64,000 bases of DNA, from positions 1-64,000 of IMG/VR virus record IMGVR_UViG_3300037141_000279; one strand, written 5' to 3'. The notes below the pieces were generated by a model. That model worked only from the letters and a program-made list of their open reading frames with translations. It was not told where the DNA came from and searched no databases. Each line of letters starts with the position of its first letter. Position 1 is the stretch's first letter. The stretch is from a virus. Below, piece after piece: positions 5,100 to 49,005 of this stretch. The position numbers were made by a program, and so were the translations under genes.

Positions 5100-5102
5100 G
5101 CG

Positions 5103-10061: not shown

Positions 10062-11586
10062 CTACGGCTGGATGCCCATGTCTCGCAGCCATTGCTTATC
10101 TGCCTCGGTCATATGCTCATATCGCTCTATCGGTCTGAGCACACCGAACGCATCATACAGCGGACCCATCAGGCTCGTCATGTCGACAGTGAACCCAGCA
10201 TCATGCAGGCTTCTGATCATCGTGGGCTCAGCCAAGAACGCCCGCACGGTGTCCAGATATCGATCCAGTTGTTCATCCATCACCGCCACCTCCAGCCCGC
10301 CCCGTCGCAGGTCCAGACAACCAACTCGATGAACCCGATCACCAGCCCAGCCAATAGGAATCCACTCAAGATTGCCATCACGTGCTCCTCTCTACGCTTC
10401 TGCCTCTACTCAGTCGGTCAAGATTACCCTCGACATGCACAGGGTGCGCCCGCCTCTTTGCAATGATACCATGAAGCGAATATGGTGCAGCCCATCTGCA
10501 ATGCCGACCGCACGTTGCGCTCACCAACTGGCATAGTCTGTGATGTCGGTCTGACTCCCACGCGCATGCTTTGGACAGTCAACCACCACATTCTGTCCGA
10601 TGCCGCTGGCTCTGCTCGCATAGATGCGCACGCCACTCTGGCATTTCGCATGGTCTGCCGTGAATTGCGCCAGGAGCCGCGCCTCCCCTGCGTTGAGCGA
10701 GACACCGTGCCATGTGCCATCCGTCAGTGTGAACTTGCTCATCACAGCCTCCATCGCCGATAGATCAGCAACGCCACTGCGAAAATGAGAACCACGACAC
10801 GCACAGTCTGCATCACCTCAATAAACGTCATCGTCGTCCCCTGCATTCAGCACACCCCAGGCGGCCAGCCCAACACCCAGCAGCAATGCCAACGCTATCA
10901 CAAGCAACACGCCTTCAGCCATCACAGCCTCCCGCCATACTGATCAGTCCAACTCGTACGCTTGAGCCTCCACCGCCACCAGCGATTACGCTGGCGAGCC
11001 CACCAATATCCTAAACACATCACTGCCTCCCCTTTGCAAGCACTTGGATCACCTTCCAAGTCTTCAATCTGTTGTTTCAACTCTGTAGTCTCGGTGCACC
11101 ACGGACAAGTGGTCCCCCGATTCCCCCGATTCCCCTGGTACACCGCCACCGCATAAGCGCCGTGCTCTTCACAGACTTGTTGGATTTGCATTTGCTTCGA
11201 TCCTCAACTCGCTAGAATTGGCCATCGCATGATGACCAGCCAGAGGTCCGTCCTGCTCGGCCAGATGAATACGTTCTCTGTACGCGTCAGGACTCCCTGT
11301 GCAAATGCCATCGCTTCGGCAAGGCTTTGAAAGTACCGTGTGGTCACGCTCCACTGACTCATATCGCTTGTTCGTATCGTTTTCGTATTCATCGCTTGTC
11401 CGCCATTTCAGTCAGCACGCGCTTCATGTACACGACGGGGAATATCCACATCGCAGCCACCAGCACCCAGAAGTTAATGGGAGGCAGTGGATATGCAGCC
11501 ATGATGATCAAGATGCCCAAAACAATTTCAAGTGCCCACCACTTACGCCATGTCATGACTTTGCATCCATGTTGAGATGATAGCAC
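10062..11586 (-). other. Cluster of short hypothetical genes (10062-10289, 10521-10754, 10922-11191, 11204-11392, 11389-11586), some membrane-spanning
   Basis: Coupled minus-strand ORFs behind a TTGACA-17-TATCAT promoter at ~11577-11605. Confidence 0.5.
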
Positions 11587-11601
11587 CAGTGGTACTGGAT
11601 G

Positions 11602-12030
11602 TCAAGCATAAAATCGTTTCAACCATGTGATAAACTGTCCGTATGGTGTCGTTCCTTTTGCGTGGTTGCAGAGAAAACAACACGGCACCACGTTTGCCAA
11701 CGTGTACCCCAGATTAGTGTTCTTGCGATCAATCCCATTGTACACGAATCGTCCGCTCTTAAACTCGCTAATCGTTTGAGGCTGAACTCGGCAATAATGA
11801 CAAGGCGACGCTGTGATGAAATCGAATTGCTCTTCCGTCAGTTCCCACACCAGTCCCCGTGCTTTGGCGTTTATATGATATCGTCGCCACACAGCATTTC
11901 TCGCTGCGCGCCCGCGTGGATATTTTAACGGGCCTCTCCCATATGGGTTGCACTCTGTGCATCGCCCTGATTGAATAATCTGCCCGATGTGACAGTGACT
12001 GCAAATCTTGATATCTCGTCTGTACGCCAT
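11602..12030 (-). CDS. HNH homing endonuclease
   Basis: PCHYC...YNGIDRKN..LGYT..NVVPCCFLCNHAKG. Confidence 0.85.
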   Translation of the reverse strand: MAYRRDIKICSHCHIGQIIQSGRCTECNPYGRGPLKYPRGRAARNAVWRRYHINAKARGLVWELTEEQFDFITASPCHYCRVQPQTISEFKSGRFVYNGIDRKNTNLGYTLANVVPCCFLCNHAKGTTPYGQFITWLKRFYA

Positions 12031-12078
12031 GATGCTCTAAAGCATACACCCCACACCAGTTAGATGTCAAGGAAATAA

Positions 12079-12121
12079 GTACTAAAGTACTATTGCATGT
12101 TTTTGGTTCTGGGCGCAGAAT
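12079..12121 (+). promoter_or_regulatory. GTAC-N4-GTAC box plus sigma70 promoter
   Basis: GTACTAAAGTAC-TA-TTGCAT-17-CAGAAT. Confidence 0.75.
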
Positions 12122-12143
12122 GGTTGACATGGAGAACAACAAA

Positions 12144-13433
12144 ATGCAAATCCCAAAACAGACCATTGAATGGCTCGTGGCTCGCCTGCACTGCAGCGTG
12201 TCCGATGAAGATGTTGCGCGCGACATGCGCCGCCGTGTGCGCCAGAATCCAACCCTCACCGCATCCTTTGAAAAGCGTTGCGTCACGTACGCGCTGAAAT
12301 GTCACCACGAGAACCAGGGTCTCTATCGGCGCGTTGTATCGGGGAGGCTCTAATGCTACTGGCGGATGTCAAACTCGCTCTGAAAAACTGTGGCTATGTC
12401 TGCTTCTACTGGGGACACAACGGCGTCAAGGTATATTCCGAAAATGGTCGCACGCTGGGCGCAATGGACGGGCGATCATATCAAGGATTCCTGCGAACGG
12501 TGGCCCCCACGCTGCGCCGCACCGAGACAGGCAGCACGGAAGACCAGGACTTGATCATCTGCTGGAGGTCCTAACGAAATCGGTACTTTAGTACTATTGC
12601 CTGAATTGGGCGTCTACCCCCATAATGGTGGACATGGAGATCAACCAAATGACGAAATTACAGAAAGCGCAAACGGAAGTCAGCCTCTTGTGGGTTAAGA
12701 TGTGCGCCGAAGAAGGCGGCCCGACCGACAGCAAGTTCGTCGTGTTCACGTCCACCAACAAGTACTCGCTCAAGTACAACACGGCGGTCAAGAAATTCTT
12801 CCGCCTGAAGTCCAACGCCCGACCGACCAAAGATCGCACGGATTATATGGCGGCTGCGCGAAATGCGGGGGTGCGATAATGAAATCCAACGTCAGCTTCG
12901 ACATCACACGCACGACCAGCTTCCGCAACATGGAAGCGGACGCCACCTTGATCTATCACCTTGTGATGGCGGGCGCGGTACGCCAGCCAGATCGCCGCCA
13001 GGAGGCACGCAAATGCCAAACCGCTACCGCATAGAGAAACATTGGCGCGCTGGTAGGTTCGATTGGTGGGTGTATTTGGGTGACGATGCGGTAAGGGTAT
13101 TTCAACTCAAGAAATACGCTATCGCTTGGATTCTAGCGCAAGAAGCCCAAGAGGCGAAGTGATGCACGACATCCTCGACGCGGCAGGCACCATCATCGGG
13201 ATCGTCATCACTCTAATCTTGATGTTTGCAGAATGGGAGGCAAAATGAAACCCGCGACACGCGAATCAGAAATATGGCTTCGGTCTGCAGCACGATACGC
13301 ACGAAACAACGAACCCGTCGCGGCTGCACTCTCTCAGCACCTAGCCCAGATAGCCCAGGAGACTCGCGACGAATTCGAAGAAATCAGACAGATTGCCGAG
13401 GCGATGCACAAAGCCGCGCAATTAGCGAAGTAG
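12144..13433 (+). other. Rightward cluster of small (early-type) genes (12144-12353, 12353-12574, 12649-12879, 13013-13162, 13245-13433)
   Basis: Short ORFs with GGAG(G) SDs behind two GTAC-box promoters. Confidence 0.6.
12583..12626 (+). promoter_or_regulatory. GTAC-N4-GTAC box plus sigma70 promoter
   Basis: GTACTTTAGTAC-TA-TTGCCT-18-CATAAT. Confidence 0.7.
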
Positions 13434-13715
13434 TGCTCCCAGCTCGATTAAGGCATCCTGGTGCAAGTCGAGGCTGCTGCGCAGTGCCTTCGCCACTTCC
13501 AGGTCAACCTCGCCGCTTCTGAACGGTGCGCGAGGCATTTCGTTTCGCACCGATAGAATCTCTTCGCACAACTTGAATAGGCGCGCGGTCTGCGCGTCAG
13601 TCAGTTCGATCTTGCTCATGGTCGTACCCTCCGTGTGATTCGTCTCTACTCCCAAAATTTTAGTGAGCCGCTGACACCAGTAGCAGGTGCTCGGGTTGTG
13701 ATTGGCAATCATCAT
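13422..13715 (-). CDS. Hypothetical protein
   Basis: 97 aa ORF directly behind the late-type motif at 13714-13732. Confidence 0.5.
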   Translation of the reverse strand: MMIANHNPSTCYWCQRLTKILGVETNHTEGTTMSKIELTDAQTARLFKLCEEILSVRNEMPRAPFRSGEVDLEVAKALRSSLDLHQDALIELGALLR

Positions 13716-13732
13716 CTATGGCTCGCAAAGTC
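13714..13732 (-). promoter_or_regulatory. Putative late promoter GACT-N8-CATAGAT
   Basis: GACTTTGCGAGCCATAGAT. Confidence 0.6.
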
Positions 13733-13814
13733 TTAAATTTTTTGTGGCGGGGCGGCGCTGCAGTCGTGACCCTCTTTAATGGCTCCCGTGGCGTACCGAG
13801 CCAACCACGTCAAA

Positions 13815-14507
13815 CTAGAACTGGTCATTCTCCGATGCGCGCCTGCGGGGGAACTCCAGCATCACACCCACAACGAACCCGCCACCGATGCGCCTGTCCC
13901 GATTGCCGCACGTTTGCGGGCCGATACTGCCGTCGCAGTAGGGATTACCCTGAGCCCACACCTGCCCGAAGTAATTATCCTCGGACAAGCGAACACAAAA
14001 GGGTCCTGTGCACGCGATGCGTACCGTGAACGCGATGTCTCCGCCCTGCATATGGCTCGACTCCAGGCCGCTCGGCGTCACGCCGTTATTGAACTGCCTC
14101 AAATAGTCGAACGACAGTCGCGCAGGACTACCTGCAAGCACGCCACGATAGGTGAGCCCGCCGAAGGCGTAGTCCGCGTCCTTGGTCACCTTGGTGACGT
14201 TGTACGCCGAATCCTCAACGCGCCCGTTCAAGCCCCAGTGATTGGTGAGCCAGATATGCCCGCCGACAGACGCCAGATTCGCGCGACCGCCACCGAGGGC
14301 GACGTGTGATTCGACGGGCGAGAATGTGTCTTGCAAATCCAATTCGTAGTGCTTGAGAAATGGAATTTCGACGCGAGCCGTCACGCCCACACTGGAGTTA
14401 TCAAACGCGATCCCTCCCGAGGTGCCGAACAAGAACCGAGTCTGCGCATTTGCGCGCGTCGCGAACAGCGACACCAACAGTAAAGCGAATACGATGATAC
14501 GTTTCAT
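13815..14507 (-). CDS. Secreted, probably outer-membrane beta-barrel-like protein
   Basis: Signal peptide ending ANA-Q; amphipathic Gly/aromatic beta-strand pattern. Confidence 0.55.
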   Translation of the reverse strand: MKRIIVFALLLVSLFATRANAQTRFLFGTSGGIAFDNSSVGVTARVEIPFLKHYELDLQDTFSPVESHVALGGGRANLASVGGHIWLTNHWGLNGRVEDSAYNVTKVTKDADYAFGGLTYRGVLAGSPARLSFDYLRQFNNGVTPSGLESSHMQGGDIAFTVRIACTGPFCVRLSEDNYFGQVWAQGNPYCDGSIGPQTCGNRDRRIGGGFVVGVMLEFPRRRASENDQF

Positions 14508-14522
14508 GGTCCCTCCCAGGAC

Positions 14523-14777
14523 TTATTCGTTCAATAGTTCCGTGACGCCCGCCAGCCCTTGGTCGACATCGCTTTTGATCTCGATGGGTTGGTCTAATTT
14601 GATATGACGCACGAAGGGGGCAGTGCGCACTGTAGGCCCGAGCCCCATCGCCTTGCGCTTCTGTGCTTGTTCGCAGACAACCTCATGCATGCTGCGGCAT
14701 CGCCTGCAAATCAGCTTCGGGCAATGAGAACAGGACTCTCCCTCGAACGCGCCGCATCCATCACATTGTGAGTCCAT
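14523..14777 (-). CDS. Cys-rich zinc-finger protein
   Basis: CDGC, CSHC, CRRC, HEVVC (B-box-like). Confidence 0.6.
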   Translation of the reverse strand: MDSQCDGCGAFEGESCSHCPKLICRRCRSMHEVVCEQAQKRKAMGLGPTVRTAPFVRHIKLDQPIEIKSDVDQGLAGVTELLNE

Positions 14778-14789
14778 GATTTCCTCCGA

Positions 14790-14990
14790 TTAAAAACAGT
14801 TTAGTCTTCGTCCCGCCAGCTTCTGTATCTCAGCAGCCTCTTCTCTCAATAGTTCCTTTAGCCGCTGCTTGGCGTGACTTGCACAAAAACACCCGTACGA
14901 TGCGCTGCGGATATTGAACACTTCATGTGTTGCTTTTTTGTCGCACGCACCTGCACCGCAGGCGTGCTCGATGATCTTAGCGTATGCCAT
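14790..14990 (-). CDS. Small zinc-binding protein
   Basis: From MAYAKII; CGAGAC...FCASH; GGAGG SD. Confidence 0.5.
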   Translation of the reverse strand: MAYAKIIEHACGAGACDKKATHEVFNIRSASYGCFCASHAKQRLKELLREEAAEIQKLAGRRLNCF

Positions 14991-15209
14991 CGCTCCTCCG
15001 CATGCGCCGAGGCACAGTGAAACCAAAGAGCCGATCATCGATGTGCATGAACCGACCTGTCTTGACTGCAGTGAATAGATAGGCGGTCAGGAACAGAGCC
15101 GCCGCGAGGCCCCGCAGAATCGTTTGAATTAAGGTAACGTATCCCATGTGCGGAGTATCCCACCTTTAGTACTACGTGTCAAGCCTTATTTTCGTACTGT
15201 CCCAAATCA

Positions 15210-15252
15210 GTACCAAAGTACCATTGCGCTGCCGAAGCTGATTTGGTATTCT
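15210..15252 (+). promoter_or_regulatory. GTAC-N4-GTAC box plus sigma70 promoter
   Basis: GTACCAAAGTAC-CA-TTGCGC-17-TATTCT. Confidence 0.75.
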
Positions 15253-15615
15253 CGACGTGTAAAGAGGAGGCAACAGACATGAGTCACGATCACAAGATGA
15301 CGCGCATGGAGCGGCTATACTTCGGATTCACTTGTTCCGCGCAACCAAAAATGGAATTTCTATCGGGCGGGGACCTGAAGCGGTGCCCCATCTGCCGAGA
15401 GCCTAACCCCATGAAACAGGAGCCCAAGTAATGACGCCCATCATCCGACGACACATGCGGCCAGCAAAAGAGCAGGAGATAGATATATTCGCTCGGTGGT
15501 TTGGCGTGATTCTCCGCGACCTGCGAGACAACCACGACCTGCGTCTGAAGCAGCATTCTCACAAACGCAAAGCGTACGCGCACGAATCCCAAATCACCCA
15601 TGTGACGCACATCCG

Positions 15616-16014
15616 ATGAACTACATACTCAAACTCGGCGTGATGTTCGCCCTGGCGGCATCCGTATACGCTGCATCCGCAGACACCATTCTGGATAGAC
15701 CCGATGTGGTCAAGTCCATTGCGCAGGCTCGACATGATAGCTTCGGACCGCCGCACATCGAATACGCTCTTCTTGTCCGCAAGGATAGCGTTGACTTTGT
15801 GGCGGGCTCGGGCGACAATGTGCAATTCACATGGGACCCCACAATCATTACAGTCATCCACACCCACCCCGATGCGGGATTTGAACAGCCATCTCCGCAA
15901 GACCTGCAGATGGCGATCAAATTTCAACAACCGATGTACGTGGTTTCGCGCACAGAAATTTGGGTTGCACTTCCGACAGGAATAGTGTACTGTGCTTCCT
16001 GCCGACAGAAGTAG
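15616..16014 (+). CDS. Secreted JAB/MPN-like metalloenzyme
   Basis: Signal peptide MNYILKLGVMFALAASVYA; E...HTHP...PSPQD (JAMM motif). Confidence 0.65.
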   Translation: MNYILKLGVMFALAASVYAASADTILDRPDVVKSIAQARHDSFGPPHIEYALLVRKDSVDFVAGSGDNVQFTWDPTIITVIHTHPDAGFEQPSPQDLQMAIKFQQPMYVVSRTEIWVALPTGIVYCASCRQK

Positions 16015-16045
16015 TTCAGATTCAAAATCGCTTTTAGGAGGCTGT

Positions 16046-16636
16046 ATGAAAACGATTATTAAACTTGAAGTGGTCATCGGCTTGATTTTATTGCTGGCGT
16101 TTGCAGTTCCATCGTTTGGCGGACTGTACGCAAACATGGACGCCACCGAGCAGTTCCTGTTCGCCCGCCAGATGCCACATGCACCCGCGATGGCGTTCAC
16201 CTATTCAATCTTCCGCACCGCACCTCTGGAAGTCGCCAAGGTGTTCGGTCGCACACCAGGATGCGCTGACGCTGATGCGGACATGATTGAAGCCACCGCC
16301 CGCGCCGCCATTAAAGCTGGTCTTGACCCAGCCATCGCTGCCGCGACTGTAGGCGTGGAAAGTGGCTGTAACGCGTTCGCGGTATCCTCAAAAGGCGCAA
16401 TAGGATATTTTCAGGTGATGCCTCGCATTTGGAAAGATCGCTTCGACTTCGCAGGCACGGTGAACTTATTTAATCGGGATGATAATATGCGAACAGGCGC
16501 GAAAATTGAAGCGGACCTGATCGCACAGTATGGAATAGAAGGTGGTCTCAGGCACTATAACGGCATGGGCACAGGGTCCCCTGAATATGATGCTGGGTAC
16601 ACCAATAAAATCCTGGCGCTGGCAGGCAGAAAATGA
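16046..16636 (+). CDS. Lytic transglycosylase (SLT domain), secreted or anchored
   Basis: VESG...AVSSKGAIGYFQVMP...N...G...HYNG motifs; N-terminal hydrophobic helix. Confidence 0.9.
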   Translation: MKTIIKLEVVIGLILLLAFAVPSFGGLYANMDATEQFLFARQMPHAPAMAFTYSIFRTAPLEVAKVFGRTPGCADADADMIEATARAAIKAGLDPAIAAATVGVESGCNAFAVSSKGAIGYFQVMPRIWKDRFDFAGTVNLFNRDDNMRTGAKIEADLIAQYGIEGGLRHYNGMGTGSPEYDAGYTNKILALAGRK

Positions 16637-31012: not shown

Positions 31013-31546
31013 CTATCCCCAGGCAATGGTTTTAAGAACTCGTGTATCCCATGCTTTTTTACGATTCTCGCCAGATATAAACTTCGCCCGATGCGTCGCG
31101 GCGAGCGGTTGCCCCATCTTACTTGCGCTAATCCGCGCACATCTCTCTGGCGTATGCGAACCTCGAATTTTTCCTGCGTTTGCAAACCGCAGTTTTTTCT
31201 TTACCTCGGATGAAACGACATGACCTGTCGCATTTTTATTACGACGAGCCGCGTCCCCCATTCGCTTACGAGACGCAGGGGAGAGCGCAATTGGTATTTC
31301 GCCTCCCGCCGTCACATTATGAAGGCATCCAGTTCCGATATCTAGTCGCCCCCAATTACGAATTAGTTCCATTTCAGTGTTCAATGCGTCTTGTTCCGAC
31401 GCTCGTACGAGAATCAAAATACGAGACTTATCTCTTGGTGGTCTCAGGTTTCGGCGATGCAATACAAATGCTCGCTTTCCTGACCCCTTCCCCACGTAAT
31501 ACGGGGTGCCATCCTTCCGAAGCCACAGATAAGAATAGAATTCCAT
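31013..31546 (-). CDS. GIY-YIG homing endonuclease with NUMOD3-like repeats
   Basis: FYSYLW...PYYVGKG...R...E...NVTAGG. Confidence 0.85.
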   Translation of the reverse strand: MEFYSYLWLRKDGTPYYVGKGSGKRAFVLHRRNLRPPRDKSRILILVRASEQDALNTEMELIRNWGRLDIGTGCLHNVTAGGEIPIALSPASRKRMGDAARRNKNATGHVVSSEVKKKLRFANAGKIRGSHTPERCARISASKMGQPLAATHRAKFISGENRKKAWDTRVLKTIAWG

Positions 31547-31551
31547 GCTCT

Positions 31552-31570
31552 ACTTATACCACGAAAAGTC
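31552..31570 (-). promoter_or_regulatory. Putative late promoter variant GACT-N8-TATAAGT
   Basis: GACTTTTCGTGGTATAAGT, 5 nt before the ATG. Confidence 0.55.
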
Positions 31571-35100: not shown

Positions 35101-36993
35101 TCGGATATCCTGTGACGGGATACCATGTCTGAATGTTTCCGTAATTTGTCCAGGTCAGCCCGCCATCCACCACGTTGTTGCCGACGTTCGTCGGCCACAC
35201 AGGTTCGTTCGCGCCCGTGATTCCAGGTCCGCTTTGACCACTTGCCAATGTGTAATATATCGTAACCGTCGGCTGGTTCGGGAAATCAAAACCAACTTCA
35301 GGAACCACCGACCCACCAACGATGGAGGAGATGAGTGCCGAGATAGCGACACCGAAACCAGATGGTCCGTTTGCATTAAGCTGCGCCGCTGTCGGTGTTA
35401 TTCCCCAGATGCCCGCGACGTTTGTAGGTCCACCATACGTTGCGAATGTGTATCCAGCCTGTGACCAGACAGTTGACGCAGCCACATCTGATCCTGATAC
35501 CGAGCCGCCGATCACCAGTTTCACCGAGTGGTCTTGAACTGCGCCGAGCCCCACGTTCCACTGCGGGATCGTCACTTCGATTCCCACGACGGTCGCGCCA
35601 GTAGGAACAGCGTTGTTGAAACTCTGCAAGAATAAATATGGCGTCCACCCTGTCGCGAGCGTGGTGAGCGGAAACACAACCGTAAGCCCGACCGCTTCGC
35701 CTGAACCCGAGAAACTCCATGTCGGACTGGCTGAAGTCACCGCACCATAATATGCATTGGCTAATGTATCAGTGCCGAGCGCGGTGATTGATGCGCCTGG
35801 GGTATATCCAGCGGGCGCGGACCCTGCAAACGATCCAACAAGAAACGACGTGCTGAACACAAGTTGTGTGCCGCTAAATGCTACCGTGCCTGTATCGAAT
35901 GATGTGGGGTGAACCACAAAATTGCTTGCGCTGGTTGTCGCGGTGGCGCTGATGCCTGAAAACTCATGCGCGGTGATCTCAAACGCTGGATTACTGAGCA
36001 CGACCGAAATGGTCGGCACCCCGCCGACAGTCACAGGCGTAGTCCAAACCCATTCAGTCGAATAATAATTATTTCCACCACCGCCAGCGTAGACGCCTGT
36101 ATGCATTGCCTGCTGAGAGTAGACGTTCCCCAAATCATCGGTCACTGAGATGGCAGACGGAATGACGTTGGTCGTCAGTATACCAAACGTAATTACAAGG
36201 ACGTTGCCGACGGTCACCGCAGAGGGAAGAGTGATCGTCCCTGTTGTGGATGCGGTGGCTGATGCGTTTTGTTGAATGTGGCTATATCCTTCTTGGACTG
36301 CGTACCCACCATGAATTGGATCGTAAGTCCAGGTAAGCGCAAGACTCCCACCCAAAGCCAATGTGCTCGCGGCAGTTGGAAATTCAAACGCACCGTTCGG
36401 AATCAAAATCGCGGTGACCGTCTCCACATTTCCATTGGTATCGAGAATACTGTCGCCGAGACTAAATGTCGTGAACGGCTGCCAAAAACCCAGACCATTC
36501 ACAGTCGGCGTGATCGTCGGAGCCGCAAGACCCCAAATTGACAGATTGGTTCCATCCCACGCATATAAATCTGCAGGAGCCCCGTCTGAATAATACGTCA
36601 TATTGCCGATGGTGTTGATGTACCCCTGGGCAATGGTCGTCTTGGGGATGATGGTCGTAAGCGAGGTATCCGTAAAGGTCGCCAAGCGGTGGTTTGTGTC
36701 CACGAAGGCAGAGACCTGCCCGTTCAAATTTCGCGATGAGTAAAACTGATTGACGATTTCCGAATCCGCCATCGGGATCGGACAGAAAATAGAGAAGCCA
36801 GGGCGGCGCTGCCATTCATAAAGGTCAGTGTCTTCCATGTTCGCGCCGTCAATCACAGGATCGTGAAACGACACCACGTTGATGCCGATGTTTTTGAACG
36901 GGGCAAAAAGCTGACTTCTATGTGTGTAAAAACCGCTTAAAGAAAGAACTCAATTGCAAGTGCGGGATCACTTTGCGATAATTTTCTAGCCAT
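32081..36993 (-). CDS. Large tail/nozzle (DNA stabilisation-like) protein with inserted carbohydrate-binding-like repeats; apparent frameshift at ~36940
   Basis: 1598-aa frame is open upstream to ~36950; a likely ATG at 36993 is out of frame. Beta-rich, with repeated DG.xTWTN.G motifs and AWDVATPYAVGEVV (CBM5/12-like). Confidence 0.7.
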
Positions 36994-37714: not shown

Positions 37715-40399
37715 TTAGAAGCCCGCAACCGCAGGATACGAGCCCCGCGACCACGCGAGTGCAGGAGCCGTGATCGTGCTATTTAAGGCCCCTCCTGAAG
37801 TCGTCCCCGTGCCGCCACCAGGAGCCGCTGCGTTGGTAAACATCAAGTCACGTACTACTGCCGCATCCCCTGATATCCTGATTCCAGGGGTCACCGCGTT
37901 AGATGTGACAGCTACAGCGTACCACCCTGGAACCATGTTCACGGTCACAGGGCCGCCAGCCAGCGGGATTTTCATATCAGTTGCGTTTGTGGGGCAGATG
38001 GTAGTCCCTGGCAGTGCTCCTGTGTGGCAAACCAGCGGCACGTTTGCCGCGCCGTTTAGACACCCTGGACCATAAATGCCGATGTCGTAAAGATTTGAGG
38101 TATTGTCTGACAAGGTACCTTCATGGTAGGTTATATATGATAAAACAGAAACAAAATATGGGAGGTAAAAAGAATAAAGGAACGTGGCGTTTTGCGTGAG
38201 CCCTAGTATGACGTTTGCACTTGAAGTTGACGCCCCAGTGCTGAACGCAGTGGCTCCTGCTGGAAAAAGCGCCGTCGCCAACACGACCGCACCAGTTCCT
38301 GTCACGCCATTTGAGAGATCAGACGCAGCCAACGTCGCGTCCACATAGTCCGTCCCGTTGCCTCGCAGCACATGCCCTGCTGGCGCTGCGCCACCGATCT
38401 GAAACCCTACAGATGTGTTGATCACCCCTGTCACAGACAGCGGCGCGGGCATAGTTATTAAAGTTGCCCCAGGCGTGCCTGCGTGCGCGAAGACGAGCGT
38501 TGCAGTCGGGTTTGTGCCTGCCCCTATCACATCACTAAGAGACCAACTGTCGTAGGCGGACGCAGCGCCGTTCCAATATTGTCCGGTGATCGCTAGATAC
38601 CCAGAACTTTGATTCAAGATGTTGGTCGCGGGGGTTGTCGCTTGAATCGTAATATCCGTAGATGCGAACAACGCAGATGAAGATGTGATATTGCCCGCGT
38701 TAAGCGTTCCGACGAAATTAAATCCACCACCACCACCATACCCAGCATTCGTGAATGTCGTCACCATGCCTGGGTTTGTGCCTGCCGAGACCGTTCGCGT
38801 AATCGTGAACGAAGCATCTGCGCTCGCAGCGCCATTCCAATAAGTCGCCCCGAGTTTGAAAATAGGCGAAGACTGGTTTGCCCCGCTCGTCGCAGCGATC
38901 TTCAAATCAAGCGAGGTATTTCCGACGAAATTTACTTTTCCGCCTGCTGCGTATATGGCATAGTTGTTCGCGCCTGTCCCGAAGTCCTCGATGTACAAAC
39001 CGTAATTGTTCGTGGCGATGCTGTTCGCCTCCGAATAGAACCCATAAAGATTCGTGATAGTCGGAGTCGCTAGGTTATTTGCAAAAGTCAGCGCCTTAAA
39101 AGCGATGGCATTTGTAATGGTCGGAATGCCGACGGTTCCCAAAGTTGATTCTGTCTGACCCCCAGCACGCACTCCGATAAGGTTAGTTATTGAAGTACCC
39201 GCATCGTGCGAAACCCCAACCGCAAAGTGTCCGCCTACTGCGGTATCGGCATGGCTCCCATCCCAAACGGTCGCCTGAACCACAATACCCAATAGGGCGG
39301 CATTGGATGGAATATCGCCAGTCAAATTGCAATGGTCGTAAAGATCAACGTCAAAAAATCCGGCAGAAACAAAAGAATTTGGGTCTGTGACGCTTCGTAA
39401 ACCTGCAGATGCACGAATTCCGACAGTATCGACAACGCTTCCCGTGACATTAGATACAAGGTTCCAACACGCGATAGCCGCGCCAGGGCCATTCTGCGCG
39501 ATGACCTGAAACGCCGGAAGGTCTGTCGTGTCTGCCGTTCTGCTAGGGCTTATCTCGGTGATCTCATTTCTTGCTGTGACACCATATGTGAGAACATTTG
39601 TAACCCAATAAGGATCGATGCTAGAGTTTGGGTCTCCGAAATGCGTACTCGGTGTAATGATTGAAGGACTGGCAACTGTAACTAGCCCAGTGATTTTATT
39701 GTACGTGAATCCCGCGTTGCCGCCGAATGCACCACTGTCGTTGAATTGCACATCTGTGTTCAATCCGCCTGGAGTCGCTGGCGGAACAAGACCTGTGATA
39801 TCCGCTGCGTTAATCGCACGAAACGTCGGCAACGCATCTGATCCACCCGAGCCAGGACCTGCCAAAAAGAAATGAGGATGTTGAGGAAGCAGAGTCGGTG
39901 TCAGCGTTCCAATAGCTGTGACAGGCGCACTCGCTGTCGCGGTGAACAGCACGCCATCCCCTGTAAACGAAACAGAGGTGACCCCCGCAATAAAAGTAGT
40001 CGGGTAAAAAATGATGTTCCCGCCCGTCGTCGCATACGGCACCATCTGCCCGATGTCCACCGTTGTGCCCGTGGCTTCAGGGAACTGCCACCACATTGGA
40101 GATTTGTTGATGCGCGCGCCATTTTGGTCATAGAACGTGACCAAATAATATGTGCCCAATCCGTTCACATTCTGAGGATTCAATTCTGCGTTGCTGTAAA
40201 TTTGGGCAATGGGGTCAGGAGCGTTCGGCAGAATGTCGCCGTTTGCATCAAATTGAAAATACACCTCTAACTCTGCGGGCACAATTCCGTACGGAGCCGC
40301 GATGATCGTCGCATCAACATTGAGTTGAAACGAGATCGACCCGTTCGGCACCGCCAAACTTGAGATGTTCTGTATATGCCCGTTCACTAAAGTGATCAT
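37715..40399 (-). CDS. Tail fibre / receptor-binding protein
   Basis: From MITLVNG (~894 aa); Gly/Thr/Ala-rich fibre motifs (GVTSVS, PGG.NTDVQFND.GAFGG). Confidence 0.75.
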   Translation of the reverse strand: MITLVNGHIQNISSLAVPNGSISFQLNVDATIIAAPYGIVPAELEVYFQFDANGDILPNAPDPIAQIYSNAELNPQNVNGLGTYYLVTFYDQNGARINKSPMWWQFPEATGTTVDIGQMVPYATTGGNIIFYPTTFIAGVTSVSFTGDGVLFTATASAPVTAIGTLTPTLLPQHPHFFLAGPGSGGSDALPTFRAINAADITGLVPPATPGGLNTDVQFNDSGAFGGNAGFTYNKITGLVTVASPSIITPSTHFGDPNSSIDPYWVTNVLTYGVTARNEITEISPSRTADTTDLPAFQVIAQNGPGAAIACWNLVSNVTGSVVDTVGIRASAGLRSVTDPNSFVSAGFFDVDLYDHCNLTGDIPSNAALLGIVVQATVWDGSHADTAVGGHFAVGVSHDAGTSITNLIGVRAGGQTESTLGTVGIPTITNAIAFKALTFANNLATPTITNLYGFYSEANSIATNNYGLYIEDFGTGANNYAIYAAGGKVNFVGNTSLDLKIAATSGANQSSPIFKLGATYWNGAASADASFTITRTVSAGTNPGMVTTFTNAGYGGGGGFNFVGTLNAGNITSSSALFASTDITIQATTPATNILNQSSGYLAITGQYWNGAASAYDSWSLSDVIGAGTNPTATLVFAHAGTPGATLITMPAPLSVTGVINTSVGFQIGGAAPAGHVLRGNGTDYVDATLAASDLSNGVTGTGAVVLATALFPAGATAFSTGASTSSANVILGLTQNATFLYSFYLPYFVSVLSYITYHEGTLSDNTSNLYDIGIYGPGCLNGAANVPLVCHTGALPGTTICPTNATDMKIPLAGGPVTVNMVPGWYAVAVTSNAVTPGIRISGDAAVVRDLMFTNAAAPGGGTGTTSGGALNSTITAPALAWSRGSYPAVAGF

Positions 40400-40407
40400 G
40401 ATTCCTC

Positions 40408-40767
40408 TTATGGCACAAACGGCGTCATCTGTCCGATATCTACTGTGGACCCTGCGACCTGGGAGAACTTCCACAGAAGGGGTGACTTATGAAGCCGAGC
40501 ACCATTTTGGTCGTAAACCACCACCAAATAATACGTCCCCAACCCATTGGCACTTTGCGGATTCAATTCCGCATTGCTGTAAATCTGGGCGGGTTGGATC
40601 AAACTCCCCACACCATCAAACTGAAACGTGACCTCTTGCTGCGCTGGAATCTGTCCATATGGCGCTGCGACGACACGCGCATCCTTGTTCAACTGAAAGC
40701 TGATGCTCCCGTTCGGTTGAAATATACTGCACGGGTTTTGGATGTTCCCATTGATCAGCGTAATCAC
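40408..40767 (-). CDS. Stand-alone paralogue of the tail-fibre N-terminal domain
   Basis: Shares PNGSISFQLN, AAPYG, QIYSNAELNPQ, GLGTYYLV, YDQNGAR, TVDIGQM with the fibre N-terminus. Confidence 0.8.
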   Translation of the reverse strand: MITLINGNIQNPCSIFQPNGSISFQLNKDARVVAAPYGQIPAQQEVTFQFDGVGSLIQPAQIYSNAELNPQSANGLGTYYLVVVYDQNGARLHKSPLLWKFSQVAGSTVDIGQMTPFVP

Positions 40768-40776
40768 ACGGCACCT

Positions 40777-40795
40777 ATCTATGGAACCAAAAGTC
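40777..40795 (-). promoter_or_regulatory. Putative late promoter embedded in the 3' end of a GIY-YIG gene
   Basis: GACTTTTGGTTCCATAGAT; the TAG in the motif is the endonuclease stop codon. Confidence 0.65.
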
Positions 40796-41501
40796 TTATC
40801 TTGGCTTGTCGTGCTTTTTGCGATGCCGACATTTTCGCTTTCGTTTCCTCAGATGCAGGCTTGCGATGAGCATCTGCATTCTTGCGTTTCGATTCTTCGG
40901 AGTGCTGTCGACCAAAAAAGGGATTAGCTTCGCCGACCATCGTGCCTTGGCGAATCTCACTCGCCCGCCTGCGCTGTTCTACAGATTTCTTTTTCCCCAA
41001 ATTCGCTTGCCGCAGTTTTTCAATATGGTCCGCCGATGGATGAAATTGCGGTCCCAATTCCTGACGCATCGCCAACCATTTCGCTGACTGTTTCTTTCCT
41101 TTCATCCCCGCTTGACCGCCCGCGTCATAATATGCTTGCAGGCTTTCACTTCGTTTGCGCCGAGTCTCCTCCGACTGCGGACCTGTGTTCCCTTCGCCGC
41201 CACGACAAATGTTGTATCCCACTTCTGGGTGCTGAGTATTCAACGCTTTAATCAGCCACCGCTCCCAATAGTCGCACTCTTCTCTCGTCTGCAAGTCCGA
41301 AATCAGAGGATGAATACTCCACGCTTCTTTCGAGTGCAGCCGCATGGATGCGAACAAATGCGAGTTACCACCTCGTCCTTGTTTTGCGTCAGATAGTTTC
41401 GTCTGCAAATATTTCTGCAGAGTCTGCCCCTTATGCTGCCCAATGTAAATCTTCAGTGTTTCCGAATTAACGATTGCGTAGATGAACATGATACCCTCCA
41501 C
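40779..41501 (-). CDS. GIY-YIG homing endonuclease with NUMOD3 repeats
   Basis: FIYAI...IYIGQ...GYNICRGGEG...SEETRRKRS, NPFFGRQHSEES. Confidence 0.9.
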   Translation of the reverse strand: MEGIMFIYAIVNSETLKIYIGQHKGQTLQKYLQTKLSDAKQGRGGNSHLFASMRLHSKEAWSIHPLISDLQTREECDYWERWLIKALNTQHPEVGYNICRGGEGNTGPQSEETRRKRSESLQAYYDAGGQAGMKGKKQSAKWLAMRQELGPQFHPSADHIEKLRQANLGKKKSVEQRRRASEIRQGTMVGEANPFFGRQHSEESKRKNADAHRKPASEETKAKMSASQKARQAKIRLLVP

Positions 41502-41533: not shown

Positions 41534-42934
41534 TTACATCATGAGAGACCGCAGCGGAGTCAACCCTTGTACTGAATCCTCCCTGTCTTCGCTCGCTAAT
41601 GCCGCCATCAAAGCCATTTGGGCTGATTGGGCTTGCGCCTGAGTTTCTGATGCGGTTATTCCGTAGGCAAAACGATGACCCTGCCAAAGCAACATTTCAA
41701 ACAGCACGTAAGACAGATCATCAGGCCATTGAAAAACCGATTGAGGGCTCGTGAACTTCGGCGACTTCGCCTGATACACGACGTTGAATGCGAATGGATA
41801 TGTGCTGACAGGCTGCGACAACCGAAACTTCACTACACCGTTGCCGTAATCAATTTCGCAAGACAGGTTGACCGCGTCTCCTGTCGATTGGTATTCAGGT
41901 GCGAGCCGATGCACAGCGTCAATCGGAGTCACGGGCAGAGGAAAACTCGGGTTGTTGATATCCACAAGGGCTGCCGATTCCACCCACGCCAAATTCCAAA
42001 TTCCTGGTGCACCTGATGCTGCCGCGTGGATCGTCCCACTGTCCGCGCCATTCGTGATGACTACCCCTGTCGGTGTTGTGAACGTCACCGTTGTGGATGT
42101 CGCCGAAAGCAGTGTCACAGTTTTCCCGATCAATCCAGGGTTAATCGCCACGCTCGCGAATGTCATGATGTCGCCCGCCGTCAAGGCGTTTGAAACCTGA
42201 ACTGTCGTCACGCCGCCCGTCGCCGAGATATTCGTGATCGCACCCGACTGCCCTGGCGTCCCCTGCAGCACGATGTGAAAATTATCAGGGATCGCGATCA
42301 AGGTGTAGCTGTCGGTCCACTGGCTGGTCTGAGTCAGTTGATTGTACGTGAACGTGCTGTTGAACGCGGGATTGACGACACCCGCAATAAGAATTTGTGA
42401 AGTGCCGATGTTCCCCACCTGAAACGGATGAGGATCAAGAAATTGAACAGTAAAAGTGCCAGCAACAGGATCAAATACGATACCCGCTGTTTGCCAGTTC
42501 CCTGAAGGACCATAGGAGTTACCCCCATTGAACGGACCGTAGACCACTTTCGCGGCTCCGTTCTGGTACGTCCCTGGGTTCAGGTCAATGCCCGCGCCGC
42601 CTGCTGGCAGTTGTCCGCCAGGAAGCACGCTGTTGATCAGAGCGAAGCAGGACGCACCTGCATGATGAAAATCTTGGAAGCCCATTTGCGTAACAAAAAA
42701 ATGAGGGTTTACTGCAGGGTTGTTGGAACCCATCTGGACCCGATTCCACTTCCATGGCATACGCCTCGTCAAAAGCATCTGTTGCACATTTTCCGAAAGA
42801 CGCGCCATCGGTTGCATATTGATTCCACCAACCGCGAAAAAATTCTGCAATTTTGTATGAATTTTTAGAGCATCAGCCATGGCCTGCATCGTGGTCGTCA
42901 TGTTGACGTTCGGAACCAAATTAAAATTTGCCAT
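41534..42934 (-). CDS. Putative head-tail adaptor with inserted beta-domains
   Basis: Helical termini (PWKWNR; VYQAK.P...WPDD) flank a beta-rich insert; precedes the fibre and tail genes. Confidence 0.55.
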   Translation of the reverse strand: MANFNLVPNVNMTTTMQAMADALKIHTKLQNFFAVGGINMQPMARLSENVQQMLLTRRMPWKWNRVQMGSNNPAVNPHFFVTQMGFQDFHHAGASCFALINSVLPGGQLPAGGAGIDLNPGTYQNGAAKVVYGPFNGGNSYGPSGNWQTAGIVFDPVAGTFTVQFLDPHPFQVGNIGTSQILIAGVVNPAFNSTFTYNQLTQTSQWTDSYTLIAIPDNFHIVLQGTPGQSGAITNISATGGVTTVQVSNALTAGDIMTFASVAINPGLIGKTVTLLSATSTTVTFTTPTGVVITNGADSGTIHAAASGAPGIWNLAWVESAALVDINNPSFPLPVTPIDAVHRLAPEYQSTGDAVNLSCEIDYGNGVVKFRLSQPVSTYPFAFNVVYQAKSPKFTSPQSVFQWPDDLSYVLFEMLLWQGHRFAYGITASETQAQAQSAQMALMAALASEDREDSVQGLTPLRSLMM

Positions 42935-43505
42935 ATCTATCCTCGTGTGCTTTTCTGCGTGCTGCCGACCACGGCTGCCCTCGTTTAGTGGCTGCCATTT
43001 TTTCTACCGACTCCGCTGACATTTTTCGTCCTGTCGCAGAGATACGCAAATTGTTCTTATGCTCTTCCGAAAACTGTAAGCCTTTGCTCCAAGGTACCTG
43101 CCCTTGACTGGAGTGGCGCATTTTTCGTTTCGTTTCGTCCGAATGATGTCGACCTGTCATCCCAAGGGTTTTAGGGTGACCCGACAGCGCCAAACTTATT
43201 TTCTGCTTGGCGGATTCAGAGTGCTGCATCCCTGAAACTCCATCACCACCAGCAGTCAGGTTCCGCAGACAACCTGTGCCTTTATCTTTGCGTCCAAAAA
43301 ATTCAATCAGTGCGACTTCAGACTCAAACGCATCCGCTTCACTATCTTGCGGGAAAATCACAATCCGAGCACTATTTTTTGGAGGATGAATGCGGACATG
43401 AGAAACAAACGCCCGCCGTCCTGTCCCCTTCCCCGCATAATACGGGGTGCCGTCTTCCCGAAGCCAAAGATAAGCGTAAAATCCCATGCCCACATTATAC
43501 CACAA
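42921..43505 (-). CDS. GIY-YIG homing endonuclease with NUMOD3 repeats
   Basis: FYAYLWLREDGTPYYAGKG...NLTAGGDG..HSESAKQKIS; paralogue of 31013-31546; TGnTATAAT then ATG at 43487 (leaderless). Confidence 0.88.
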   Translation of the reverse strand: MWYNVGMGFYAYLWLREDGTPYYAGKGTGRRAFVSHVRIHPPKNSARIVIFPQDSEADAFESEVALIEFFGRKDKGTGCLRNLTAGGDGVSGMQHSESAKQKISLALSGHPKTLGMTGRHHSDETKRKMRHSSQGQVPWSKGLQFSEEHKNNLRISATGRKMSAESVEKMAATKRGQPWSAARRKAHEDRYGKF

Positions 43506-43948: not shown

Positions 43949-44036
43949 ACGTAGAGTTTACTTCTGGTACAAAATCGGAGCGGGGGTCATTACGCCCAAC
44001 GGGCGCTCAAAGAATGACCCCGTAGCTCAGAACTTT

Positions 44037-44900
44037 TTACTGATACAGCGGGATGTGGTACGTCGCGCCGTTCACGGACACCACCAAGTACGACGTGGTG
44101 ATTGTGCCGAGCCCAGCACCTGAGTGCTGGAAGAAATGCTGTCCGCCTGCCGCCAAATCCGTCACGTCGAACAAGTTCGTGGCGTTGGCTGTGGCCTGGA
44201 ACAACGAGTTGATAACCGCAGCCGTTGTGTTGGTGACGGTAATCGCGTTGATGTGTGTCGAAGCGGCGATGATGGCTGCCGATGCGGTTGCGCCCATGTC
44301 GATCCACAAACCTTGCAGCGGAGACGTTACAGCAACAGCAGCGGACAGGTCAAGTTGACCCTGCAGAGCTGCCGAGTACTCGCCGTTCGTGGTGGCGAGA
44401 GTGCCGCGCACGATGATCTTGCCCTGCACGCCGTACAGGTAACCCTTGATGATGCTGGTTGCAACAGTCACCGTCGGATCAACGCCCGCAGTGCCTGTTC
44501 CGGCAGTAGCGCCCGTGTAAGTGCCACCAATCGTGATCGCGCCGCGCACCGAAGCGATGCTGGCAGCCGCCGCGTTCGTCGGAGCCCCGAGAGGAAATGG
44601 GTTCGTCTGAATCGAGACGCCCGTTTCATGAGGATAGTTGAACAAAATTTCAGAGTCGATGGGGCGAATGTTCCCAGGAACAAACGCTGCGCCGAAAGCC
44701 GTGTATGCGCCAACACTGAACGGCACATTGGGATGAGACCCAGGAGTGCTGTTAGGTCCAACAACAGAAGCCACGCCGTTTTCGCCGCCTTCATGCGCGA
44801 AGGATGACACGTTTCCGCGTTCGTACAGTACTGCGTCGCGAACATGCAGAGGACGAAAGTTCGCATTGGAATAAATCTGGTTCTGGGTTCCTGTTGACAT
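44037..44900 (-). CDS. Putative virion structural (head fibre/decoration) protein
   Basis: 287 aa Ala/Gly/Thr-rich, ends YLVVSVNGATYHIPLY. Confidence 0.6.
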   Translation of the reverse strand: MSTGTQNQIYSNANFRPLHVRDAVLYERGNVSSFAHEGGENGVASVVGPNSTPGSHPNVPFSVGAYTAFGAAFVPGNIRPIDSEILFNYPHETGVSIQTNPFPLGAPTNAAAASIASVRGAITIGGTYTGATAGTGTAGVDPTVTVATSIIKGYLYGVQGKIIVRGTLATTNGEYSAALQGQLDLSAAVAVTSPLQGLWIDMGATASAAIIAASTHINAITVTNTTAAVINSLFQATANATNLFDVTDLAAGGQHFFQHSGAGLGTITTSYLVVSVNGATYHIPLYQ

Positions 44901-44915
44901 TGCCGTAACCGCCTT

Positions 44916-46127
44916 TTATAGTAAGAACCAATCGTATTCTTGAGCCACGGGGGTTGCAGCCACCAGTGACGAGTTTGCGTACCGCACGCGAATGATCGCG
45001 GCGCGCCCTTGCGAAGTCCATGTGACGCTGCCGTCGATGGTTGTTGCGCCCTTCGCGAAATTGAAAGCCTTGATCCCGATGAAGGTCGAGGCAGTGGTTC
45101 CTGCCACGGTCGCCTTGTAGAGATATCCGTTCAAAACGATGTACGCGGCGGGAGTATAGTCCGCCACAACAGCCTGCGATGTTCCTGGGTACACAGGAGC
45201 GTTGCAATCGCATCCGTCGATGGTGATTCCTGGTGTTTCGGTCACGCCATTCGGTCGGGCAAATTGAACTGACTTCTGAGCCTTCCACTGCGCGCCTGTG
45301 TTCGGAACCACGACGACGTAATCTGCCGTGCCATTTGCGGGCACGATAGGGAGCGGGTTCTGAATGCCAGCAACCAACCCGCCGAGTGGGTTTGTGATGA
45401 CCATTGCCGCTGCGATTGTGACCGCACCGTTGCCGCTGCCGACTGCCAGCGCGCGTCCGACGAGAGTGCCGCCACCCAAAGTGATCGAGGTGACTGCCAA
45501 AATTGTTCCGACCATGTTCGATGTCGCCACCGAGGTGAACGAGGAACCAACCAGCCAGATGACAGTGGTGTTGGCCGCAGTTGCGCCGCCTGAGAACGTG
45601 ACGGACTGACCTGACGCCAAATTGATTGTCGAGGAGCCCTTGAAAATATATACACCTGGGCCATTCAAAACAAGCCCAGCAGAGCAGGTGGCCGCGCCGA
45701 AGGAATAATTCCCTGGCACGACGATGTTGGAACCAGTGAACGCGGTAGATAAATCCAGCGCGCCGCCCAAAGATGTGAAACTCAAAGCCGCATACGCCGT
45801 ATACGCAGCAAGGCCATCGATGCGAGCCTGAGCCGCACCAGCGTTGTCAATGACGTACGGAGGGATGATTTGACCAGCGCCACCGTCAGACTGAAAGATT
45901 CCTGTGATGGACGCAGTCGGGAACGATCCGACGTTGCCGCCGTTAATCGTGGACGAGCCTGTGTTGGTCACGCCGCTGTATGCCAGAAGAGCATACTTGC
46001 CCGCCGCGCCAAGGGCTGCGGGGGATGCGGGGAGAGTGCCGAAGTCGGCGGGGTTCACTTGGAAATATGCCCCAGGCACGTTGGTGCCGCGATAGCTTGA
46101 CGTGTAACCTTTAGACGATGTGGTCAT
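44916..46127 (-). CDS. Structural-block protein containing a DUF3494 ice-binding-like beta-solenoid domain
   Basis: YALLAYSGVTNTGSSTINGGNVG, AAQARID..AAY, PGNY, GVYIFK, GGATAAN.VIWLVGSS, GTILA.TSITL...GRALA; no signal peptide. Confidence 0.85.
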   Translation of the reverse strand: MTTSSKGYTSSYRGTNVPGAYFQVNPADFGTLPASPAALGAAGKYALLAYSGVTNTGSSTINGGNVGSFPTASITGIFQSDGGAGQIIPPYVIDNAGAAQARIDGLAAYTAYAALSFTSLGGALDLSTAFTGSNIVVPGNYSFGAATCSAGLVLNGPGVYIFKGSSTINLASGQSVTFSGGATAANTTVIWLVGSSFTSVATSNMVGTILAVTSITLGGGTLVGRALAVGSGNGAVTIAAAMVITNPLGGLVAGIQNPLPIVPANGTADYVVVVPNTGAQWKAQKSVQFARPNGVTETPGITIDGCDCNAPVYPGTSQAVVADYTPAAYIVLNGYLYKATVAGTTASTFIGIKAFNFAKGATTIDGSVTWTSQGRAAIIRVRYANSSLVAATPVAQEYDWFLL

Positions 46128-46185
46128 GATATTTTTCCTCTAACCATCGGGAACCGATGGGACGCCCGCAAATTTGCTGGGCTTC

Positions 46186-46204
46186 ACTTATGGTTTGGAA
46201 AGTC
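46186..46204 (-). promoter_or_regulatory. Putative late promoter of the DUF3494 gene
   Basis: GACTTTCCAAACCATAAGT, followed by two 5'-UTR hairpins (46144-46182). Confidence 0.65.
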
Positions 46205-46387
46205 AACTTTCTGTTCGGGCCAGTATCCATACATCAGCGCAAACGCTCGGCATGAATAACAAACACCGATGAACTTTTCTTTCTCGGCCTTCAATTCCTT
46301 CTTGCAGTGAGGACAGGTTTTCATAAAATGAAAAACCCCCAGGTGCATCTTGCTCCTGGGGGTCGTCAATGTCAAGTTTTTTTTCGT

Positions 46388-48396: not shown

Positions 48397-49005
48397 TCAA
48401 TGTTGTTTCAAAAGTCTTATTCTAATTTTCTGTTTTGTCTTTTCAGACACAGCATGCCCCATCAAAGCGGCGCTGATTTTTCGTTTTGTCTCTTCCGAAC
48501 GCTTAGTGCCTGTCAGCCTAACCTTCATTCCCCATCTCGTCGCATCAGAGTGTTTTCGCCCCACGCCAGCCTTGCTAATTTTCTCTCTGGTTTCAGGAGA
48601 CGCTTTCTTTCCTTTTCGGTTATGATTACCTAAAGCGGAAATTCGCATTTTTTCTCGGGCGGCAAGAGTCATCTTTTTTCCTTTATTCCACGGGACGCCC
48701 GTATGCCCTTCGCCACCCCGACAAATGTTGTAACCAACTTCGGGATTCTGGGTATTCAACGATTTAATCAGCAATCGTTCCCAGTAGTCGCAGTCTTCTT
48801 TAGTCTGCAAGTCCGAAAACAGTGGATAAATACTCCACACACCGTGAGGATGAATTCTCATAGATGCGTAAAGATGCGACCGAGTTGAAATCCCTCTCTT
48901 CGCTTCGTACATCTTCTGCTGCAAGTACTGCCGCAGGTTGGTGCCTTTGTGCTGCCCAACATAAATCTTTAGAGTCTCGCTGTTGACAATCACATAGACG
49001 AACAT
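48397..49005 (-). CDS. GIY-YIG homing endonuclease with NUMOD3 repeats
   Basis: FVYVIVNSETLKIYVGQHKG; close paralogue of 40779-41501. Confidence 0.9.
   Translation of the reverse strand: MFVYVIVNSETLKIYVGQHKGTNLRQYLQQKMYEAKRGISTRSHLYASMRIHPHGVWSIYPLFSDLQTKEDCDYWERLLIKSLNTQNPEVGYNICRGGEGHTGVPWNKGKKMTLAAREKMRISALGNHNRKGKKASPETREKISKAGVGRKHSDATRWGMKVRLTGTKRSEETKRKISAALMGHAVSEKTKQKIRIRLLKQH

Follow-up and report, generated by a model that had tools for sequence, protein, structure and literature searches.

What is a DUF3494 domain, of the kind found in ice-binding proteins (IBPs), doing inside a late gene of a phage? The question is raised by a 403-aa gene in a 64,000-nt stretch of viral DNA (hereafter the window; positions 1 to 64,000 of IMG/VR record IMGVR_UViG_3300037141_000279), which is the first part of a 96,295-bp record estimated by CheckV to be 97% complete and which belongs to an uncultured lineage of ~100-kb peat phages. 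The gene encodes a carrier, which we call core-A, and, inserted in it, a DUF3494 beta-solenoid whose relatives are found in unrelated carriers on many other viral contigs. We propose that the solenoid is an exchangeable cassette that is probably displayed on the phage particle, where it would serve adhesion. The parts of the gene are the following:

44916..46127, minus strand: coding sequence of 403 aa, the core-A carrier with the inserted DUF3494 solenoid
46035..46127, minus strand: N-terminal peptide of the carrier, aa 1-31 (SSKGYTSS.RG..PGAY...DFG)
45387..46019, minus strand: DUF3494/IBP-1 beta-solenoid, aa 37-247 (211 aa), delimited by PF11999, the 6EIO match, the structural model and Foldseek
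45399-45986, minus strand: Pfam envelope, aa 48-243
aa 32-36 and aa 248-252: short linkers flanking the solenoid
44919..45371, minus strand: C-terminal all-beta domain of the carrier, aa 253-403, beginning GIQNPLP
45000..45197, minus strand: carrier sub-domain with the DGSVTWT motif, about aa 311-376

By profile search, aa 48-243 of the 403-aa protein were assigned to PF11999 (Ice_binding/DUF3494) with 80.1 bits (cut-off 28.7; E 2.3e-22), the match spanning positions 2-207 of the 208 in the profile, and a six-frame search of the genome recovered the domain at 82.8 bits as its sole copy. The best relative of the solenoid by sequence among solved structures was 6EIO (E 7e-13). An AlphaFold2 model of the protein, built from 22 full-length homologs, reached a predicted local distance difference test (pLDDT) score of 85-92 over aa 40-245 and displays the discontinuous beta-solenoid with a long alpha-helix by which the IBP-1 fold is recognized, the characteristic bracing helix lying at aa 95-113. 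Foldseek returned 31 matches below E 0.001 (1e-10 to 9e-7), every one of them a solved DUF3494 ice-binding protein, with target-normalized template-modeling (TM) scores of 0.62-0.79 and identities of 20-31%; the next match had an E-value of only 0.1. The combination of PF11999 with a helix-braced discontinuous beta-solenoid is thus the one seen in EfcIBP (6EIO), the IBP of Candidatus Cryosericum odellii (9LHN), ColAFP (3WP9), and AnpIBP (7BWX/7BWY). Among viral structures (BFVD), the sole DUF3494 matches to the solenoid were three Hyperionvirus proteins, and in a tblastn search of 50,697 GenBank phage records it gave only chance matches to a mycobacteriophage helicase, even at E 10.

Single-domain IBP-1 proteins are free proteins, and the cellular members typically carry a signal peptide (PMC11645318). 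The phage solenoid, known from sequence and model, differs in being an internal insert, without a signal, that has a peptide of 31 aa before it and a domain of 150 aa after it: the N-terminus of the 403-aa protein is polar and its first hydrophobic run is the first strand of the solenoid. An earlier interpretation, made from the letters alone (hereafter the sequence-only reading), had described a complete DUF3494-like solenoid inserted in a late, signal-less protein of the virion block and flanked by termini foreign to IBPs. This structural part is borne out, and the comparative data refine it. In particular, when the C-terminal 159 aa were used as query against 1.8 billion representatives, only 41 clusters were retrieved, many of which consist of stand-alone proteins of 175-193 aa. 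In these homologs the N-terminal peptide (SKGY.SS.RG...PGA....DFG) is joined directly to GIQ..LP..PA, which starts at aa 254 in the 403-aa protein. Core-A therefore consists of aa 1-31 and aa 253-403, with ~220 aa (aa ~32-252) spliced in between, and because the flanks are unrelated to IBPs and form part of a separate carrier family, the DUF3494 domain is a true insertion. The same point is used by another module: core-A relatives of 282-330 aa contain there an unrelated ~130-aa insert, which bears the motif ITW(I/V)TAEG.S.PS in P0123, P0126, P0129, P0131, P0132, P0137, and P0140 and has no match in Pfam. In the canonical DUF3494 fold the last coil ends beside the first (PMC11645318), from which we infer that N- and C-terminus of the fold are near neighbors; the solenoid may for this reason tolerate insertion in a loop and leave the protein around it intact.

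The carrier itself offers some structural clues. Eight positions of its N-terminal peptide are invariant across the 22 homologs; aa 1-15 were modeled with low pLDDT and aa 21-23 as a beta-strand. Modeled without the insertion, the carrier is all-beta, with the N-terminal peptide adding one strand (pLDDT 87.8; predicted TM score 0.82). Its sub-domain at about aa 311-376 matched the receptor-binding domain of the Pam1 tailspike (7eea; Z 6.9, root-mean-square deviation 2.0, 55 aa), the Carin-1 tail fibers (8ck1; Z 5.8), and chitin-binding modules of the CBM5/12 type (4tx8 and 4ny2; Z 3.5-3.6), the scores of 5.8-6.9 applying to the 55-aa sub-domain alone and the best whole-domain match reaching only Z 4.6. 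As modeled, the resemblance to tailspike, tail-fiber, and carbohydrate-binding modules is suggestive. The PDB sequence and profile searches gave nothing for either core-A or the second carrier family described below, and ESM Atlas gave no usable match for core-A. One relative, P0127 (558 aa), has an SGNH/GDSL esterase domain fused in front of the core-A carrier, which hints that the family works on acetylated surface polysaccharides. The DGSVTWT motif of the sub-domain had been read as being repeated in a tail protein of the same phage. This does not hold, since the 1598-aa protein in question has a single DGGLTWT (35150-35167), and about two occurrences of so loose a pattern are expected by chance in six frames of 64 kb; a profile made from the sub-domain around the motif retrieved nothing else in the genome, and we discarded the repeat.

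Database relatives indicate that the solenoid travels independently of its carrier. In most of them the region in common with the 403-aa protein was aa 37-247 alone, 50-69% identical to solenoids with unrelated flanks. A sister phage (L004/L092; 98 kb) whose adaptor-like protein is 80% identical to that of the window phage has a 69%-identical solenoid in a loop of a homolog of the neighboring 287-aa protein (n287 family). This homolog (P0024) aligns with the 287-aa protein over aa 3-205 (59% identity) and aa 442-506 (41%), its solenoid occupying aa 226-426. Scanning IMG/VR yielded 139 stretches encoding relatives, with two to four copies on several contigs. The 79 loci retrieved from these contain 81 solenoid open reading frames (ORFs) of 237-2070 aa, in which the position of the domain varies. 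An obvious signal peptide was recognized, by a crude hydrophobicity heuristic and inspection, in only 2 of the 81, and because the other 79 lack one while cellular DUF3494 proteins typically possess it (PMC11645318), the phage solenoids appear not to be secreted. All ten solenoid carriers checked scored above the PF11999 cut-off; PHROGs held no family for any of these ten. Grouped by the similarity of their flanks with an approximate, single-linkage procedure, 172 distinct solenoid proteins fell into 34 clusters, 12 of which have at least two members.

Trees built from the solenoid only support the same conclusion. Core-A solenoids appear in at least four places, the group of the 403-aa protein standing beside solenoids from n287 and other carriers, and the approximately unbiased test rejected a single clade for core-A solenoids (log-likelihood difference 145.5; p 0.007). 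Within clades, solenoid and carrier are about equally conserved (identities of 84 vs 80%, 67 vs 67%, and 84 vs 86%), whereas between clades the middle coils of the solenoid are 22-28% identical and the carriers still 66-73%. Such low identity next to a steady carrier points to replacement of the solenoid rather than drift. Across contigs of 28-223 kb the solenoid is kept at 45-69% identity, and the solenoids closest to it are phage-borne rather than cellular. It also co-occurs with the tailspike domain K1-lyase_C in P0064.

The number and arrangement of solenoids vary among these contigs. The 28.5-kb contig L091 has, besides its core-A solenoid, a second one at aa 1320-1530 of a 1696-aa protein (11520-16610, plus strand), and a plain core-A paralog (5037-5585) directly downstream of the solenoid-bearing core-A gene. 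Four solenoid loci (L012, L033, L045, and L078) belong to one jumbo-size IMG/VR contig of 223,506 bp, and L012 encodes an 837-aa protein with two PF11999 domains (4526-7039). In a 105-kb relative, two tandem genes (L005:7944-8996 and L005:9002-9928, plus strand; 350 and 308 aa) start directly with the solenoid; as they lie ~5 kb upstream of the terminase and an SU10-type portal, the module also occurs near head genes.

When the 403-aa gene is expressed, and with what, can be approached from the signals around it:

46186-46204, minus strand: exact copy of the late-promoter-like motif GACTT-N6-CCATAAGT, overlapping the last codons of an upstream 63-aa ORF
46144..46185, minus strand: 5' leader predicted to fold into two hairpins, of which the second has a perfect stem of 7 bp (CCATCGG/CCGATGG)
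46136-46140, minus strand: ribosome-binding site GAGGA, predicted to be unpaired
44037..44900, minus strand: 287-aa gene of the n287 family, the second carrier family, 16 nt downstream
43967..44031, minus strand: terminator-like hairpin and U-run (-29.9 kcal/mol, z -4.16; none of 200 shuffles as stable)

On the coding strand of the 96-kb genome the motif GACTT-N6-CCATAAGT occurs in 6 exact copies, for ~0.003 expected, and in 15 copies when up to two mismatches are allowed, nearly all of them just upstream of start codons. Copies at 82141, 84885, and 88508 lie by head genes and copies at 31552 and 37682 in the tail block; they precede genes adjoining those of the portal and the major head protein, as well as tail-block genes. 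Judged from these sequence patterns, the motif would act as a late-type promoter common to head and tail genes, as the sequence-only reading had it for the 403-aa gene. The 5' hairpins that it described were also recovered: the leader is predicted to form two, leaving the ribosome-binding site unpaired (minimum free energy -21.2 kcal/mol, z -2.39; 4 of 200 shuffles as stable). Because of the 16-nt spacing and of the strong terminator-like hairpin that follows n287, we regard the core-A and n287 genes as one late two-gene unit. An ESM Atlas lead that would make the 287-aa protein a Phage_cement_2 (0.80) was not used. The 63-aa ORF immediately upstream (46184-46375, minus strand), which contains the late motif of the solenoid gene in its final codons, is zinc-ribbon-like given its two CxxC pairs (CPHC...CYSC). 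Four homing-endonuclease genes of the GIY-YIG/NUMOD3 type are scattered in the late block (42921-43505, 40779-41501, 48397-49005, and 31013-31546, minus strand); several are directly behind copies of the motif, and the copy at 41501/41502 can be read on both strands.

Ten syntenic phages, the window phage included, share the gene order endolysin ... p223 - p184 - [slot] - p104 - adaptor-like - fiber-like, in which the slot is occupied as follows:

Window phage: core-A with solenoid, and n287
L085: core-A with solenoid
L091: core-A with solenoid, and plain core-A
L092: plain n287, and n287 with solenoid
L084 and L089: core-A with the other insert
L093: plain core-A
L090, L094, and L088: n287 only

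The neighbors by which the slot was placed, and the head genes of the same phage, are:

41534..42934, minus strand: adaptor-like protein of 466 aa, the synteny anchor, 68-80% identical in relatives
37715..40474, minus strand: fiber-like protein of 919 aa, its N-terminal ~140-200 aa conserved in relatives
88.5-90.5 kb: large terminase
85.7-88.0 kb: SU10-type portal
82.2-83.2 kb: major head protein

A solenoid is thus found in the slot in 4 of the 10 phages and is missing from it in 6 of the 9 relatives, which makes it optional, or dispensable, at this place. The exchange of modules among related phages in a gene of the tail module, which is the behavior of fiber and receptor-binding proteins, is what we observe in the slot. 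Relatives of the fiber-like protein (in L084, L085, L086, L089, L091, and L092) continue behind the conserved N-terminus with unrelated C-terminal parts of 428-996 aa, a sequence pattern that would suit a fiber or spike whose N-terminus serves as anchor and whose distal modules can be exchanged; the distal part in L086, which follows a fiber-type N-terminus, is an n287-like module (45% identity, E 2e-34). A 1105-aa protein of L028 that had been taken for a homolog of the 919-aa protein was withdrawn, as the two have in common only a ~100-aa segment around QFNDSG.FGG (E 2e-7). A conserved N-terminal anchor with exchangeable distal modules is also known from the Pam1 tailspike (7EEA) and the Carin-1 tail fibers (8CK1), a pattern like that of the 919-aa neighbor; core-A, for its part, resembles these proteins over the 55-aa sub-domain only (Z 5.8-6.9) and shows no sequence homology to them. 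The placement of the 403-aa gene as the first of the virion block has to be amended: it does open the variable slot that immediately precedes the adaptor-like and fiber-like genes, but the head genes lie at 82-90 kb and the conserved gene p184, upstream, has a late motif of its own.

Taken together, we consider it probable, with some reserve, that core-A and n287 are peripheral particle proteins associated with the tail and that they display the solenoid as an optional cassette for adhesion. Display on the particle is suggested, indirectly, by the gene position, the late motif, the shuffling of modules in fiber-like proteins, the co-occurrence with K1-lyase_C, and the scarcity of signal peptides in the phage copies. 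The two-gene unit with n287, the n287-like module of the L086 fiber-type protein, the esterase fusion of P0127, and the tailspike and tail-fiber matches of the carrier sub-domain point the same way. Under this proposal, the 403-aa protein would be made late and would take a peripheral place in the particle, most probably on the tail near the adaptor and fiber proteins. The solenoid would sit in a surface loop of the small all-beta core-A (a ~30-aa N-terminal peptide and a ~150-aa domain), as one of a phage-borne pool of optional, exchangeable cassettes that move between unrelated carriers, and would offer an accessory adhesion face on the virion instead of being secreted to protect the host. 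Presence in the particle, tail location, and an adhesive role are deduced from this combination of evidence, and several observations weigh against them. The true head genes are ~36 kb away from the 403-aa gene. The adaptor-like protein owes its name to a match with Pfam SU10_adaptor that is under the cut-off (E 0.0015), searches of the PDB by sequence and profile having given weak matches only, and for the 919-aa and 1598-aa proteins these searches were empty and no annotated relatives were found. Neither the whole 403-aa protein nor, at 1e-10, the terminase had a match by tblastn in the GenBank phage records, so that no cultured relative was found there, and PHROGs contains no family for the 403-aa protein or its neighbor. 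Foldseek with the insertion-free carrier model gave nothing below E 0.3, in keeping with the low whole-domain Z-score of the carrier fold. The approximate character of the flank clusters and of the signal peptide count belongs on the same side.

What the displayed solenoid would bind is a separate matter, the candidates being ice, a polysaccharide of host or matrix, or some other surface. The first possibility, put forward by the sequence-only reading along with adsorption to minerals, is ice: the solenoid would protect virions from ice recrystallization, or hold them at ice or brine veins together with their hosts in seasonally frozen peat. All significant structural matches are experimentally studied ice-binding proteins, and the solenoid is nearly uncharged (D+E+K+R 3.7%) and composed of A+G+S+T at 54% (S+T 21.8%). 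A low charge and a make-up rich in these small residues are typical of the ice-binding-protein family. Within clades, moreover, divergence of the solenoid does not exceed that of the carrier, as expected for a ligand that does not change, and the presence of the solenoid in many unrelated carriers and phages would fit a target independent of the host. Functional ice-binding proteins have a flat b face with a row of outward-pointing Thr/Ser (PMC11645318). On the other hand, DUF3494 proteins have been described as both ice-binding and substrate-binding or adhesive, some of the latter coming from temperate settings (PMC12337378), the solenoid is just 20-31% identical to proven ice-binding proteins, and six of the nine close relatives do without the module in the slot. 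The habitat gives limited help. DNA of the phage was detected in peat metagenomes (public sequencing runs), which agrees with an ice ligand, but peat is not necessarily frozen: this habitat is compatible with freezing without being evidence for it. No RNA run was found among the listed sequencing runs with phage DNA, and the permafrost and soil runs, in which the share of this DNA is small, were not used as habitat evidence. We therefore regard ice binding by the solenoid as a tentative possibility, and we are equally guarded about its more general form, namely that the particles of phages in seasonally frozen peat carry genuine ice-binding modules, supplied by a cassette pool that is specific to phages and whose members change place among the loops of different tail proteins. 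If it were true, virions that grip ice would be known for the first time, and these phages could survive freeze-thaw or stay in liquid veins with their hosts.

A role as the primary host-receptor-binding protein, in which the solenoid would determine specificity by recognizing a polysaccharide on the host surface, much like the beta-helices of tailspikes, seems to us unlikely, and somewhat more so than ice binding. The slot between p184 and p104 does exchange two carrier families and several inserts among syntenic phages, which is classic host-range behavior; the carrier sub-domain resembles receptor-binding parts of tailspikes and fibers; and the esterase fusion and the co-occurrence with K1-lyase_C point to polysaccharide-directed fibers. 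The solenoid, however, lies in an internal loop and not at a distal tip, relatives manage without it, the phages in which it is 45-69% conserved come from contigs of such different sizes that a common receptor is improbable, and it shows no accelerated divergence relative to its carrier. Finally, that the gene is an auxiliary metabolic gene (AMG), that is, an ice-binding protein of host origin whose synthesis during infection would cryoprotect the cell and which would be absent from the particle, is very improbable: although three PF11999 genes on Arctic viral contigs were annotated as cryoprotective AMGs (PMC11515562), the present domain does not form a free gene of host-like character apart from the structural modules, and its insertion in a phage-specific carrier, the missing export signal, the late motif common to head and tail genes, and its phage-borne rather than cellular nearest relatives all fit this explanation poorly.

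The phage also has genes for a GH108 endolysin, ribonucleotide reductase, RecA, a primase-polymerase, Mom, GroEL, and transfer-messenger RNA, and several GIY-YIG homing endonucleases. Shuffled surface modules have precedents among phages: T4 Hoc and the Ig-like domains of tail and capsid proteins are optional, non-essential, and thought to adhere weakly to an abundant substrate. We infer that the likeness of the solenoid to these domains is one of function only, as it is a beta-solenoid rather than a beta-sandwich and is inserted in a loop. The same Pfam family has been found on viral DNA in PF11999 genes of viral operational taxonomic units from the Arctic surface microlayer (PMC11515562) and in the DUF3494 proteins of Hyperionvirus (BFVD). 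In those cases the description is of auxiliary genes that stand on their own, presumably to the advantage of the host, in contrast to the cassette reported here, which lies inside tail-adjacent late proteins and hops between carriers. In our literature searches, viral PF11999 was described only as an AMG, and no account came up of a phage structural protein that incorporates a DUF3494 domain.

No microbial ice-binding fold is more widespread than DUF3494, which has been discussed in viruses only as an auxiliary gene serving the host. In the present phages, and likewise on many further viral contigs, it acts like a module of tail-adjacent late proteins that can be inserted in loops and exchanged. 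Its ligand can be addressed directly, since the 211-aa solenoid is a compact, expressible domain; the exact insertion site, the insertion-free homologs, and the hopping between carriers encoded by adjacent genes provide clean constructs and natural controls. If the solenoid binds another ligand, phages would offer an extensive natural collection of DUF3494 domains under selection for a target other than ice, which would help to separate ice binders from adhesins. If it binds ice, the virions themselves would be adapted to the cold, which would matter for how viruses survive and infect in frozen soil and for the carbon cycle of peat and permafrost.

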